Assembly: GCA_965113315.1 (NCBI GenBank)
Contig: OZ220367.1
DNA from: Podarcis vaucheri
Taxonomy: Eukaryota
Reading direction: 5' to 3' (one strand)
Length of the DNA: 64,000 bases
In this document: positions 441-39,400 of the stretch, one piece after another
Layout of the letters: each line of letters opens with the position of its first letter
Numbering within the stretch: the first letter of the stretch is position 1
Made by a program: the position numbers and the translations under genes
Notes under the pieces: generated by a model
What the model was told of the DNA's origin: nothing
The model's input: the letters and a program-made list of their open reading frames with translations, nothing else
Database searches by the model: none

Positions 441-1309
441 GGGGACGCAGGTGGTGTTGTGGGTTAAACCAGTGTTTCCCAAACGTATTTGGGCAACGGC
501 ACACCTGTTTACCGGAAAAAAATCTCGCTGCACACCACCATTAAAGCCCCGCCCCGTGACGTCAGCGCGCAGCGTCACGCCGGGAGGGACGCACAAAAGT
601 GAACGTTTTTTCCCTTCCCCTTGCCGTGGTGGGAGGAGGCAGCAGAGCGAGGGACTGAGGGACGGCGGCAGCTGAGGCGGCGGCGGCTGTTGTGGTGGTG
701 GCGGCGATAGCGGGCAGAGGAGGAGCCGTCGCCGGGAGTTGCTGCTGCTGCTGTTGCCGCTGCTGCCCGGACATGCCGGCCTCCTCCTCCTCCGCTGTCT
801 CGCGCTCCTCCCTTTTGCGCGCGCTGCCCCACCGCTCGGCACCACCACCGCGGAGCCGCCCCCGGCTCGACGCGGATCCTCGCCGCCGCCGCCTCTCGCC
901 GCCCGACTCGCCCGCCTCCCTCCCACGGCACACCAGCCGGTGTCTCACGGCACACTAGTGTGCCGCGGAACACCGGTTGGGAAACACTGGGTTAAACCAC
1001 AGAGCCCAGGGCTTGCTGATCAGAAGGTCGGCAGTTCGAATCTCCACGATGGGGTGAGCTCCCGTTGCTCAGTCCCTACTCCTGCCAACCTAGCAGTTCG
1101 AAAGCACGTCAAAGTGCAAGTAGATAAATAGGTACCGCTCCGGCGGGAAGGTAAATGGCGTTTCTGTGCGCTGCTCTGGTTCACCAGAGGTGGCTTAGTC
1201 ATGCTGACCACATGACCCGGAAGCTGTACGCTCCCTTGGCCAATAAAGCGAGATGAGCGCCGCAACCCCAGAGTCAGTCACGACTGGACCCAATGGTCAG
1301 GGGTCCCTT
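441..1309 (+). mobile_element. Sauria SINE (Squam1, lacertid type), interrupted by a nested hAT element
   Basis: 16-bp TSD tactaaggatcacaat at 425-440 and 1310-1325; tRNA-like head with A box near 452-462 and B box gttcgaatc 1034-1042; characteristic body ...gtgcaagtagataaataggtaccgct...gggtcccttta. Confidence 0.92.
470..989. mobile_element. Non-autonomous hAT (Charlie-like) DNA transposon with GC-rich internal segment
   Basis: Perfect 13-bp TIR cagtgtttcccaa/ttgggaaacactg; perfect 8-bp TSD ggttaaac (462-469, 990-997); subterminal cggcacac motifs. Confidence 0.92.
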
Positions 1310-1789
1310 TACTAAGGATCACAATCTAGAATTACTGATAATTGCAAAGTTATTCTAAGAAAAAAAGAAATAAAAACTGATGAGGGGAAAGGAAACATAC
1401 AAAACATTGCATCCCTTGGGCCCAACACTGTGGATTTTTGCCTTTATGTGGAGGATTCCCCCAGCTGTTTCCTCTGTCCTGCTTGCAGGCAGGTAATGCA
1501 AGGGGCGATTGCAGGGAGCAGGAAGATCCATGCATGCCTTCCATAACCCTGTCCACTTCTTCTGTGTGCATCGTCATGCTATTTGCATGCATGCATGCAC
1601 AGGTGATGGGGAACAGGAATTCGGGTTCCACCGGTATGCATCCTCTGTGTCCATACTCAGGTGGGATCAGGTCTCACTTTTCTGTAATGTAGACTCCATC
1701 CTGAAACTAATGGCAGGTAATTTTCATAACCAAGGTCAGCCACATAAAAGTGCTTAGCAGATAATTTTCACTTGTGTGTAATATTGCAG

Positions 1790-33448: not shown

Positions 33449-36400
33449 TTTGCTTGCAAGAAAACCTCAAAGTGGTTTAAAACATTAAAATTATCAGTTA
33501 AAAACAAATCTTTATAAATTGTTAAAAAAATAATTACAATCAATGCAACGCTAAAAAACAGATTAAAACATGTTTATATGTCTGGATTGGCTTGCCTAAA
33601 CAAAAATGTTTTTAGCAGTCACCGAAAAGAGTACCGTGAAGGCGCCTGCCTGGTGTCAATTATAAGCCAGTCTTCCTGGAAACAAGCCCAATTACACTCA
33701 CTGGAACGTATTTCTGAGCAGACATGTATAAGATAGTGCTGTTAGCTTTGCTTTATGTCTTTGCAGCCAACCTGTCGTTGCTGCTTATTTCTCCACACCC
33801 AAAGAGTTGGCATTTCTGCAAAAGGCAGCAAACATCAAATAATTGGGGAGGCTGTTAAAAGGAAGTGCAGCATTCAAAATCACAGGCTGCTCTTGAATTG
33901 GCTCTATGCATAGAGTATTGTTACGGAGAGCTAGGAATTTCTATGAAGACATGGATCAAGCAATTCATGTCTGGTTGCACATCTTAAGCTGGATCTAAGA
34001 CACTTCAAAAAAAAGTTTCAGGAAAACGCATTGTGAACCTCATAATGGGAAATCACATTGGCAAAAGACGGAACTCTACAGTGCCATCTGGTGTCACAAC
34101 ACTTTTAAAACTAATGTAGCTGAGTCCTTAGTGGCTCTTCGTTTGTTAATTGGTTCTGCAGATTCTGCTTATACTGAGATTGGGAGTAAAGCTCAGGATT
34201 CTGCACTCTCTCTACTGTGGATAGATCCTACCCTGGCCTGGGGTGAATGTTATTGTAATTAAAAGTTGGCTAGCCTAAATTATCATAGCTTACTGATTTC
34301 AACAGCCTACTCTAGACTCTCCATTAGAAACTTGTTACATTTTTATTTGGACTTCTTAACCCTTTCTTAATACTTTTAAACAAAATTTCCAGCACCCAAG
34401 CTGAGTCTAGAATGCAGCGTAGACCTTCTTTTCCTGGTGGACAGTTCATCCAGTACCACCCTCGAAGGCTTCTTGCGCTATAAAGCTTTCCTGAAGAGGT
34501 TTCTCCAAGCCGTGTGGAGTAGAGAGAGCCCAGGGAATGTGGGTGTGGCCCAGTACAGCAACGATGTCAAAATGGCCGTCGGCACTGGAGGCCACCAAGA
34601 TGCTCTCAGTCTGGTGAAGGCTGTTGATTCCATGCAGTTCAGTGGAGGAAGCACCTTGACTGGCAAAGCTTTGCGGTACGTTGCACAGCATGGCTTTAAG
34701 AGCGGCCCAGTCTTTGCTGATACACCCGATGACCTGCCACGTGTGGTCGTCTTGCTCACGGATTCAAATGCTCAGGATTCGGTGGCAGAGGCAGCGAAGT
34801 ACAGCAGAGGCCAAGATGTCTTCCTCATTGGAATTGGCAGCGAATCTTTGAAAGCAGAGCTGGATAATATTACAGGGAATCCAAAGTGGACACTGATCTA
34901 CTCATCCCCACAAGATCTCTTCAACAAGATTCCTGAACTACAAAGGAAAATATGCAGCATAGACAGCCAAGGTAAGGGTTCTAGGTAAGAAAGCATTATC
35001 ATTTGGTATCTCAGCATCTACTATTGGCCGTCAGGTCCTGCTATCTACATACTTGCTATCCAGAAATTCACTTATCTGCACTTAAAGAATTCTGCCCAAA
35101 CCTCACTATATGCTCCACAGATTCACTTATTCGAACAGCCAATTTCCTTACTCGGCTTGGGTTTTTTGTTTGTGATTTGCTGGTCATCATCCCAGCAGCT
35201 ATGAGTCCGAGGCCAGGAAAAAATCTGACAAAACTATTAAAAGAGTGGACAGATTGCACATTGGAAGTGTTTCCATAGGAAATAATAGAAATCGTGGACT
35301 TGTTATGTGACCACTTGCCTAACAAACAATTTCCTGGGAACACATTGTGTCCATAAATCAGTACCTGCATGTATGACTTAAAGAGGCACTGGTATATTCT
35401 GATACATACTTGAAGATGTATGATGGAAAATGGGGAAAAAGGCATCACTTCTCAACAGTTAATCAAGTCTAGTTGCCTGCAATCAAAATGGATCTGCTAT
35501 TTACTAAGCCATCTCAGAGGCTTAGCTGAGCTTTTCTTCAGAACAAATTATGAGAAGGTGGTGCTAGTGAATGCTTCCATGGCCTCTTGCTGATCACAGG
35601 GAATTGATTCAGATCTTTATCTATACCTTCTAAGATGATGAAACGTCTATAGTTTTTTCTAAACAAATTATGAGTTAACTATTTAGAACAGGCATCCCCA
35701 AACTCAGCCCTCCAGATGTTTTGGGATTACAGTTCCCATCGTCCCTGACTACTGGTCCTGTTAGCTAGGGATGCTGGGAGTTTTAATCCCAAAACATCTG
35801 GTGGGCCGAGTTTAGGGATGCCTGATTTAGAAGATTGTTTTAGTTTGACTGAGCTATTTAGAAATGAACTAAATGTTGGGTTTATTTTGATTTAATTTGT
35901 TACATTTTTCTCCCTCCCTTCCTTCAGTGGCTTCAGGCTGGCATACATTTTAATTCTAACAACTGCCCTGTGAGGTAGGTTAGACTGAGAGGTGGTTGCT
36001 GGCCCAAGCTCACCTTGGTGAGCCTCATAACCAAGCAGGAACTTGAATGTGATCCAATATTCTAGCACTGGCTTTGCCTCACCTTACTGCTTGCTCAGTG
36101 CCATTTAATTTTTAATTCAAAAGAAATCTGCTGTTCTAAGACTCCTGCCTTTCTAAATTTAGCCCAAACTAATGTCAATATGACCTTATGCAATTACCAT
36201 TTCCTTTCATTTGACTGTGTTTTAGATGCCTTCCAGCTATTCAGACTATTGAGCCATGTTCTCAGAAGCTTAATGCTGCTCCTTCCTTCCTTCCTTAGGC
36301 TGCCCATCTCAGTCTATGGACTTGGTATTTGCTTTGGACTCTTCGGCTTCTGTTGGAAGGAAGAACTTTGTGCATCTGAAAACCTTTGTCAGCAGCCTCT

Positions 36401-39400
36401 CTCTCCAGTTTGACATCAATCGGGATGTGACTCAGGTAGGCCTTGTTGTCTTTGGGAAAAGGCCTCACACCACATTTGGGCTGGACACACACGTGACCAG
36501 CTCAGATCTCCATGAAGCCATCAGTCAAGCTCCCTTTGTAGGTGGCTCTGCCTCGGTTGGCAGCTCCTTGCTCCATATTTATGACGATCTCATGACTGTC
36601 CAAAAAGGAGCAAGGCCTGGTGTGAAGAAGATTGTGGTGGTGGTCACAAGTGGAGCTGGAGTGGAGGATGCCGTTGTCCCAGCTCAACAGCTACGTAATA
36701 ATGACGTATCGCTACTGGTTATTGGGATGGAACAAGTTCAAGTGAGCTCATTGCTGAGGATTGCAGGTTCTCACAATAATCTCTTAAGGATTCCTTCCTA
36801 TGAAGAACTAAAAAATAATGAAGAACTTATCCTTGAAAGAATATGTGATGGTAAGATGATTATTTTGACTTTATGGTTGTATCTGTATACAATGAATAGA
36901 ATAAAACCACATTTCTTTATTAATACCTTCATTTTATTATTATTTCGGATAACCCTTTGCCCAGCGTAACCTGGAGCCAGCCCTTCTTTCCCTGCATCTG
37001 CCCATAAACCAGGGGTTACTAAACTGCAACCTTCCAGATGTTATTGGACTACAGCTCCCCGTATTCAATTTGTGATGGTTCAGGGTGATGGGAGTTGGAG
37101 TCTTAACATCTAGAAGGACTACAGGCTTGTCACTTCTATCATAATGAATCATATATTATTATTTTTTAGAATTCACATTTGTTTCTTGGCTTATCACCAA
37201 TATCAAGTGTCCGAAGGGGCTGGCTAAATATCAATTTACAGTGAATTAGAAGTGCATTGTACATATCAAGTACCAGTAAAGTACATTACTTCAGTGCAAT
37301 AAAATTGCAGCGCTAGTTTGGATATTTCCAAACTTGAGCCATATTTAGTTCTTGAATTTGAAATGCCAATTGATTTCAGCGCTACCTTTTCTGATGTAAA
37401 CATACTTCTGAGAAAAAGAAGAAGAAAAGTAAGATCTATGCTTCAGCACTACCTATCAACCACATATGCCTAACCCCCTCTTTCTTTGAAGTTGAAAAGA
37501 AGCCACATTAAACACTTCTTCCCCTTCGTGTTTAGTTTAAACCATCTTCAAATCAGTATTTGCCATGTGTCTGATTATCTGTTTCACCTTTTAAGCCATT
37601 GTTCATCCAAGATTAGTGTGTATTCTTAACACATCAAACAGGGATTGCTTGTGGTAAATGGCAAAAGGACTAGCTGGTCTTTCACGGGCTAGTGTGCCTT
37701 GTTTACAAAACAACTCAAGATGAAACTGAACTTGTAGTCTTTGAACAGCTGCAGCTTAGCCATTTATTTAATGATTGGTAAGGTGATGTACTGTCAGATC
37801 CTGTGTGTGAAGGAAGGGCATGTGATGGCACAAATGGGGACTAGGAACAGTAATTGTGAGTTGAGGAGGGTCTATAGAAAGTTCTGGAGCAGGATGCTGG
37901 CATCCCGGATTCCGACAAAAAAGTTTCAGCTGTGATTTTGGCTGTGTAAAATTTAAGTAATGCACTCAATGTATAGCTTTGTCCTAGGTGTGAGACTTTC
38001 CCTCTTCTAAGGCTGTAAGGCGTTTCTGCAATACAGTGGTGCCTCGCAAGACAAAATTAATTCGTTCTGCAAGTTTTTTCTTCTTGCGAGTTTTTCGTCT
38101 TGCGAAGCACGGTTTCCCATAGGAATGCATTGAAAATCAATCAATGCGTTCCTATGGAGACCGTCCGGGGACAGAGGGGAAGCGCCGCTGGCCTTCCCCT
38201 CTGTCCCTGGACCTGTTTTAAAGCAAGGGAAGGGACAGCGGGGAGAAGATCGCTTCTCCCCGTTGCCGCCCCTTGGTTCAAAAGGGGTCCGGGGACAGAG
38301 GGGAAGGCACGTGCGGGGCTGGCAATGGTGAGAAGTGATCTTCTCCCCACCGCCCCTTGCTTCAAAAGAGGTCCGGGGTGCGGGGGCAAGCTTCGTTTTG
38401 CGAAGCAAGCCTATAGGGAAATTCGTCTTGCGAAGCAACTCGAAAACGAAAAAACCTTTCGTCTTGCGAGTACCACTGTACCAGGAGATGTGTTCACTGA
38501 TTTCCATCTTCACAAAACAACTGGGATGTTGCGGCATTAAGAAAGCTTTGATTTCTTTCTTTCTTCTTGTGCCTGCCAGTCAACATGATCTGTTGCTTTC
38601 TTTTGTCTTTTGCAGAGGCCAAGAAGCCAGCAAACCTCTGCAAACCCAACCCCTGCATGAATGATGGAGTTTGTGTTTCTGGAAATGGCAGCTACTGGTG
38701 TCGGTGCCAAGGTTGGGTAGGACCTCACTGTGAAAACAGTAAGCATCAAAGTACAGTAGCCAAAAGGCATTTAGGCCTCCTCCCTCATTTACATTTATTG
38801 CCCCCATCTGAAACAAATGATCCCTGAAGAATCTACTTGCTCCGTACCTTTGCCCCAGATAAAGTCAATTCATTTCCATTTAGATCACATTCCTAAAAGT
38901 ATGCTGAAAAACGGAGGGTGGGGAAATTAAATAAGCTTCGTAGTATAAAATTTTACGGTTGACTGGTAAATGTACTTTTGGCTTGTTCTCTTCACAAATA
39001 CTAATCTTAAATGACTCACTGCAATCTTCTTAAACCCATATATTTCTTAGGTTTAATTGGCACACTCTTTCACTAAGATCTTGTTGGATCTTATTCCAAA
39101 AGAGTCAGCTTGTTACAGCAAAAGCAGAACAACCTAGCATGTAGTGCGCACTGTATTTATTTTGCTGAACAAGAGGCGCTCTGCATGTGCAATGCCTCTT
39201 TTCTGCGTTGACCTATTTGGAAGGATCAGGAAGCATAGGTGGAGGCCTACAATTGTCTTCCTATGAGGTTGGCGCTTTGAGCATGTGCTTGTTGCTGCAC
39301 AGATGACACCAGCCTCACAAAGCAGATCACATCCACCAGACAAGGTGCTCCTGGCATCCTCTAGAAGAAGAAGAAGAAGAAGAAGAAGAAGGAGAGTTTG

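Follow-up and report, generated by a model that had tools for sequence, protein, structure and literature searches.

How does a short DNA transposon in a lizard genome come to enclose what reads as the start of a host gene? The question is raised by an element at positions 470–989 of a 64,000-nucleotide stretch of Podarcis vaucheri DNA (assembly GCA_965113315.1, contig OZ220367.1), here called the window. The original prediction, made from the letters alone, had described perfect TIRs and a perfect TSD enclosing a GC- and CpG-rich block, with a minus-strand ATG opening a peptide, and these readings all held. The 13-bp TIRs CAGTGTTTCCCAA (470–482 and 977–989) are perfect and delimit an element of 520 bp, and the perfect 8-bp TSD GGTTAAAC, of the nnnTAnnn type, flanks it at 462–469 and 990–997. 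Block 620–920 has 75% GC and 40 CpG, with a CpG observed/expected ratio of 0.94 versus 0.28 for the window. The minus-strand frame from the ATG at 774–772 runs for 71 codons and then meets a stop; the R of its peptide MSGQQRQ is private to the window copy among 29 copies compared, the majority residue being Q. The insertion interrupts a SINE, which we take to be Sauria-type: flanks 441–469 and 998–1310 align as one piece to other loci, and the joint is spanned in 57 of 101 matches, the best at 88–90%. Two open frames lie on the plus strand at 34380–34985 and 36274–36966, with the element ~33 kb upstream of them; we presume that they resemble von Willebrand A-domain exons. The layout of the locus is as follows.

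441–1310, plus strand: host SINE, broken by the element (flank alignment)
462–469: left TSD GGTTAAAC, nnnTAnnn, Buster type
470–543, plus strand: terminal arm with 13-bp TIR (470–482); element positions 1–74 align at 85–86% to L271, L272, and L273, at the end downstream of the transposase
544–615: block common to many sibling subfamilies and absent from the transposase-coding core; at least 2,072 exact matches of an 18-mer
616–668: older-cargo remnants, also in sibling elements (sibling comparison)
669–799, minus strand: RANBP9 exon 1 piece (alignment to L137 1064–1293)
795–879, plus strand: TCF20 promoter/first-exon piece (alignment to L177)
878–925: GC-rich block common to many siblings and to the outer arm of composite transposase-coding elements
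926–989, minus strand: terminal arm; GGCACAC repeats lie subterminally, and the 13-bp TIR is at 977–989 (end comparison)
990–997: right TSD GGTTAAAC, identical to the left copy

The element is not a chance arrangement, since all 40 matches scored in a genome search (from 1,724 candidates) were full length at 99–100% identity, 39 of them 520 bp long, and 29 of 30 fetched copies had their own perfect 8-bp TSD. Copies carry distinct TSDs on different chromosomes and are therefore multicopy by transposition. Counts of exact motif matches, all of them lower bounds, gave at least 368 copies of the 520-bp form (a junction motif specific to it), at least 863 places with the ATG motif of the RANBP9 start, and at least 2,072 matches to the motif adjoining the left arm. 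Being short (520 bp), uniform in length, high in copy number, and without transposase coding, the 520-bp form has the features of a MITE. One insertion is present twice with identical flanks (L023 and L024, C18:2.81 and 2.96 Mb), i.e., within a segmental duplication.

An 8-bp TSD and short TIRs define hAT elements, and nnnTAnnn is given as the Buster TSD consensus (PMC3517528). Both hAT features are present here, and TA occupies positions 4–5 in 253 of 254 distinct TSDs across all loci fetched. The element is thus a non-autonomous Buster-type hAT, a class set by the TSD consensus, with the names of the nearest transposases simply consistent with Buster. Two elements with both termini as in the window element, L271 and L272, were found via the AT-rich end of a sibling and contain intact frames of 627 and 626 residues (L271:2246–4737). 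The nearest named proteins are ZBED5-like and SCAND3-like, with 95% identity to Podarcis muralis. The frame gave a zinc-finger match (E 9.4e-6) as well as zf-BED (0.016) and DUF4371 (0.12), all under Pfam cut-offs; a PDB search returned 0 matches. Its catalytic residues (DDE/D core) are presumed. Both L271 and L272 are composites: 1.5 kb of filler follows the outer end, and beyond it sits an inner end at an 8-mer that is target-like. Window positions 544–877 had no alignment to these transposase-coding elements except two matches of ≤25 bp; alignment of the block to an autonomous hAT, which would have spoken against the predicted capture, was thus not observed. Partial-length matches to the transposase had 91–96% identity in Rana, Pleurodeles, Leptobrachium, and Thamnophis, and a match in Xenopus laevis had 86%, values that may point to horizontal transfer.

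The captured exon could then be traced to its donor. A translation of a longer form, of 1263 bp, matched RanBP9 in the PDB at E 3.9e-36. An exon-end motif had 31 matches, of which 29 were element copies, one a RANBP10-like paralogue (82%), and one a TIR-free locus, L137 (G000:C27:33.787 Mb). L137 is the RANBP9 parent locus: no exact TIR was found within 100 kb, and downstream lie RANBP9 exon 2 (tblastn E 8e-21) and, picked by motifs that we take to be those of RANBP9, another six exons, to the last. A TIR-less, single-copy parent at a gene 5′ end is what the proposed capture by a lizard hAT called for; this one retains all later exons, and an element that captured host first-exon sequence is accordingly what we observe, with near certainty. 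The RANBP9 piece in the window comprises 25 bp upstream of the ATG, the ATG at 774–772, and ~35 codons, with one internal deletion of ~106 bp near 723/724; the peptide beyond ...AAASA is chance read-through and not RANBP9. Longer siblings reach the start of the SPRY domain, the splice donor, and the intron.

Several other searches led to no donor. A protein search with the short, low-complexity 520-type peptide raised 6,317 candidates, none of which scored, and a PDB search with the likewise low-complexity 730-type peptide had 0 matches. Two junction-exclusion patterns gave 7 and 12 matches, all element copies, and a Pfam CTLH search found four other genes, the donor not among them. With TCF20, partial transposase, and RANBP9 exon 1 as input, Pfam returned 0 families for 4 of 4 queries, and an ESM Atlas search yielded a lead of 0.83 only. 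For the intron-side piece, 40 of 127 candidates were scored and 11 fetched, all elements, and an exclusion pattern had a single match, an element.

The region upstream of RANBP9 today holds ~3.6 kb (G000:C27:33783162–33786792, L149) that is absent from all element copies. As a TIR-like sequence from another hAT-like family opens this stretch, the RANBP9 promoter may be preserved in the copies in an older state. Separately, three loci (L083, L085, and L166; e.g., L166:2390–3500) have a different hAT-like element inside the captured RANBP9 exon, with other TIRs and its own 8-bp duplication. Within it is part of a transglutaminase exon (PDB TGM3, E 2.3e-7), so host DNA is packed by a second family too.

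A second donor accounts for much of the remaining block. A CCAAT-side motif had 56 matches, and of 29 fetched that were not tied to listed RANBP9 carriers, one was TIR-free (L177, C29:42.80 Mb). This is the TCF20 parent locus: a splice donor follows the captured part, and ~7 kb downstream is a 1,920-codon open frame that is TCF20, 98% identical to TCF20 of Lacerta agilis, a likeness that also puts the host with the lacertids. From its position, the splice donor would belong to the first exon of TCF20. Sibling elements hold up to 1.5 kb of this locus. The window piece (795–879) is on the strand opposite to the RANBP9 piece and has an 81-bp deletion at 835, with the CCAAT-containing part gone. 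The predicted purine-rich leader followed by a first exon therefore needs revision. A first exon is present, that of RANBP9, which fills only ~131 of the 300 bp, and most of the leader is TCF20 promoter/first-exon sequence in reverse.

For about 170 bp (544–668 and 878–925), our donor searches found no TIR-free source; we take motifs within 544–615 to be GC-box/CRE-like. In the search with 616–660, the first 30 loci were all elements, and 1 of 32 further loci (L348) was TIR-free. L348 covers more distal filler and not the window's part, and was ruled out as donor of 616–660; it is a sixth donor for another filler, which it matches at 87%. In all, six donors were traced, four beyond RANBP9 and TCF20, each TIR-free, and three of these four are CpG islands. 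These three came from sibling cargo pieces with one TIR-free locus each (1 of 17, 1 of 3, and 1 of 3 matches), with GC of 0.61–0.64 and CpG observed/expected of 0.65–0.97. Neighbor exons were sought by Pfam, with matches in 12 of 117 frames scanned. One of these donors lies between an RWD-domain gene and phosphoacetylglucosamine mutase, another has a SCAN/Myb gene on one side and a proteasomal ATPase on the other, and the remaining one is upstream of a class I tRNA synthetase, with its own ATG and splice donor on the other strand. Given these flanking genes, all three look like head-to-head promoters. Among siblings, cargo at L161:2289–2410 resembles an initial coding exon, with 38 codons up to a GT splice donor and a mitochondrial-targeting look, and cargo at L246:330–1100 is a long purine-rich 5′UTR-like stretch ending in an ATG and a short coding part. 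Fold-back (inverted) duplications occur inside sibling cargo at L038, L253, L052, and L058; if transcribed, long RNA hairpins would be possible.

We then compared the fillers of copies that share the arms. On contig C1, the window's block was present in 15 of the first 30 loci with these arms (seven of 520 bp, six of 560 bp, and two of ~1,040 bp), and the other 15 had different fillers. Filler is thus constant within a subfamily and varies between subfamilies, the comparison that the original prediction had proposed. One abundant sibling subfamily of 1.4 kb (8 of 30 sampled; L033, L034, L040, L047, L048, L053, and L060) has a promoter-like filler, in which we presume a ZNF143/SBS-like motif. 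Through the longer block-carrying subfamilies of 560, 730, and 1263 bp, a series of deletions can be followed back to a complete RANBP9 exon 1. The 730-bp form was revealed by exclusion patterns (108 motif matches), and the 1263-bp form, with the complete RANBP9 exon, GT splice donor, and an intron piece, was found among 30 of the 730-type matches. Several captures and deletions preceded the 520-bp element, which is what the pruning has left.

Divergence from the subfamily majority was 0.36% at non-CpG and 1.0% at CpG sites for the 520-bp form (7 copies, taken by position), 1.1% and 2.5% for the 560-bp form, 0.8% and 3.4% for the 730-bp form, and 1.5% and 4.9% for the 1263-bp form. It is lowest in the shortest form and highest in the longest, with the 560- and 730-bp forms out of the expected order. 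Compared with the donor, RANBP9-carrying copies differ by 3.0% substitutions, with 10 shared changes and several indels. Judged by these divergences, the amplification is young and the capture older, since 520-bp copies diverge from their majority by 0.36% at non-CpG sites and RANBP9-carrying copies from the donor by 3.0%. Of the predicted single, recent capture, recency holds for the amplification; the capture itself is older, and there were several captures and deletions. Change at CpG sites is two to four times faster than elsewhere, from which the copies appear to be at least partly methylated.

How was host DNA captured? The oldest-looking RANBP9 carriers start with a 96–118-bp module consisting of the right arm and a 23-bp inner left TIR, and their RANBP9 cargo opens with ACTTAAGT, a site that lies 4.3 kb upstream of the ATG of the gene. 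Across all loci in hand, with eroded variants merged, 8 of 9 distinct orphan inner-end junctions have nnnTAnnn, against a background of 3–5%; the ninth is without the motif, and several copies show small erosions at the inner-TIR junction. Wherever the donor is known (four of four cases), cargo starts exactly at a target-like 8-mer, one donor site now having one substitution. Three pieces, E, TCF20, and F, were added later in front of the RANBP9 cargo and join its older start with few bases lost. In their donors, the far ends fall at the end of ATCTAGTC (E), inside GTTTAAAG (TCF20), and at the start of GCCTATAT (F), all nnnTAnnn 8-mers, F being a weak case with filler bases at its far end. Because 8 of 9 junctions are target-like and the later pieces end at or beside such sites, we consider it likely that transposase made these captures at the inner end, rather than gap filling. 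The three additions join the same start with few bases lost, so the end beside the RANBP9 cargo would have been cleanly excised each time; by analogy, the losses are like hAT excision footprints, which are changes of 1–2 bases (PMC3744419).

In the sequence of events that we propose, an element with a short internal TIR would insert into the CpG-island 5′ end of a gene. Transposase would then cut the internal end and join it to another target, within a few kb, through either a local hop of the 96–118-bp end module or hybrid pairing of ends from sister chromatids, two routes that would yield the same junctions. The outer ends would mobilize the host DNA between both targets, and repeats of the process would put new cargo beside the internal end. 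The cargo would be shortened and fused by microhomology deletions and sibling recombination, with amplification greatest for the shortest forms. A free-standing end module was found at 0 of 30 loci examined, from 96, which weakens the simple-hop version and favors sister-chromatid end pairing. At the upstream RANBP9 target in the present assembly, neither element nor footprint is left and the intermediate was not seen. Neither the RANBP9 far end, in intron 1, nor any junction within the window element is target-like, and they resemble microhomology joins; the best reading of such joins would be later pruning and recombination between siblings. Taken as a whole, the reading of a Buster hAT carrying a pruned RANBP9/TCF20 mosaic in at least 368 copies, its cargo likely gathered via re-use of an internal end, is in our judgment quite probable.

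The best-surviving alternative is that gap filling or fork stalling/template switching (FoSTeST) brought host DNA into broken elements, which then transposed. FoSTeST is a published model for multicopy animal Pack-TIRs (PMC8277862). The microhomology at internal junctions of the window element and donors that are now without an element agree with it, and the RANBP9–TCF20 fusion between sibling elements is probably so explained. Cargo that starts exactly at nnnTAnnn abutting the TIR (8 of 9) is not predicted by it, however, nor are new pieces between the inner TIR and older cargo, and we regard it as improbable. Somewhat more doubtful still is a model known from Arabidopsis Pack-CACTA (PMC6379663), by which two independent neighboring insertions each lost one end and formed hybrid elements with no special internal end module. 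The composite transposase-coding elements, whose inner end lies at a target-like 8-mer after 1.5 kb of filler, fit that model, as do TCF20 carriers with a full arm instead of the mini module, but three additions join one RANBP9 cargo start with few bases lost, and two of them restore the same module upstream. Capture of this kind overlaps with our inner-end model and may be true for some subfamilies. That the GC-rich block is transposon or low-complexity DNA merely resembling a first exon has almost no chance of being right: peptide searches of protein and PDB databases were without matches and 878–925 sits in the outer arm of the transposase-coding composites, but collinear matches to single TIR-free RANBP9 and TCF20 loci refute such an origin for 669–879, and longer siblings extend into the SPRY-domain start, splice donor, and intron.

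The proposed transposase-made capture at an inner end can be set against known systems. The family has the structure that defines Pack-TIRs: a non-TE interior, TIR-free parents (RANBP9 and TCF20), multiple copies, and distinct TSDs. Tan et al. (2021) reported 4 multicopy Pack-TIRs among 370 in 100 genomes and proposed FoSTeST; by the authors' statement, their pipeline may miss end-bypass cases, and “lizard” and “Anolis” are absent from the main text (PMC8277862). Their Pack-hAT-N8_XT, which carries the CAPSL 5′UTR, likewise has hAT ends round non-TE host DNA, a TIR-free parent on another chromosome, distinct TSDs, and GC-rich 5′ cargo. It exists in three copies, whereas here there are at least 368 of one subfamily, at least 863 with the RANBP9 start, and six donors, and, unlike in the FoSTeST cases, the junctions point to transposase action. 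As in Arabidopsis Pack-CACTA (Catoni et al. 2019, PMC6379663), capture is tied to transposition and the outer ends of a composite move the genic DNA between; that plant CACTA system involves aberrant end loss and two neighbors, whereas here an inner TIR has been kept and marks one capture after another. P-element hybrid element insertion and Ac/Ds sister-chromatid/reversed-end transposition (Zhang et al. 2013, PMC3744419) are alike in having 8-bp target sites of the hAT type where rearrangements join, duplications and deletions in the flanks, and 1–2-base footprints. Those are chromosomal rearrangements in laboratory stocks, whereas here the products themselves multiplied as mobile families in a wild vertebrate. 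Bat Helitrons such as HelibatN3-NUBPL (Thomas et al. 2014, PMC4224331) are similar in being vertebrate, with a bias to gene 5′ ends, sequential capture, and about a thousand copies; they differ in being rolling-circle elements without TIRs or TSDs and in their capture route. Finally, Buster MITEs such as Mar (PMC3517528) have the 8-bp nnnTAnnn TSD, short TIRs, and short high-copy derivatives; these are plain internal deletions of an autonomous element, unlike the window family with its host cargo. Our literature search found no report of the window family and none joining RANBP9, transposon, and lizard; the family may be catalogued in Repbase or Dfam with its cargo unnoticed.

Among indexed RNA runs, none was on record as containing the element. 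We used raw RNA reads of a related organism (A, which may be another species than the window's), covering 6–12% of each run. The joint of the 81-bp deletion, which only the 520- and 560-bp forms have, was present on both strands in two bulk runs, with 40 and 36 reads, whereas a single-cell run had none (6–12% read). Of the RNA reads placed on copies, 83–93% continue into sequence that is unlike the element, and read starts or ends were not seen to pile up in copies with the reads of A. This pattern fits passive inclusion in host transcripts and would be compatible with promoter activity being either present or absent. The RANBP9 peptide is most likely a passenger and not a product.

Copying of host gene starts by a transposon on this scale is rarely reported in vertebrates. 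In lacertids, read mapping and gene annotation can be misled by the ~860 partial starts of RANBP9 and by the many fragments of promoters. A more speculative and, on balance, unlikely extension is that a still-competent lacertid Buster hAT works as an inner-end ratchet, repeatedly sampling CpG-island, often head-to-head promoters and placing the cassettes at thousands of sites, where some would start or re-wire host transcripts or regulate donors in trans. With hundreds of copies per subfamily, at least six donors, and intermediates with readable junctions, as well as an intact transposase frame and natural substrates, the capture of host DNA by TIR transposons becomes testable in a vertebrate.
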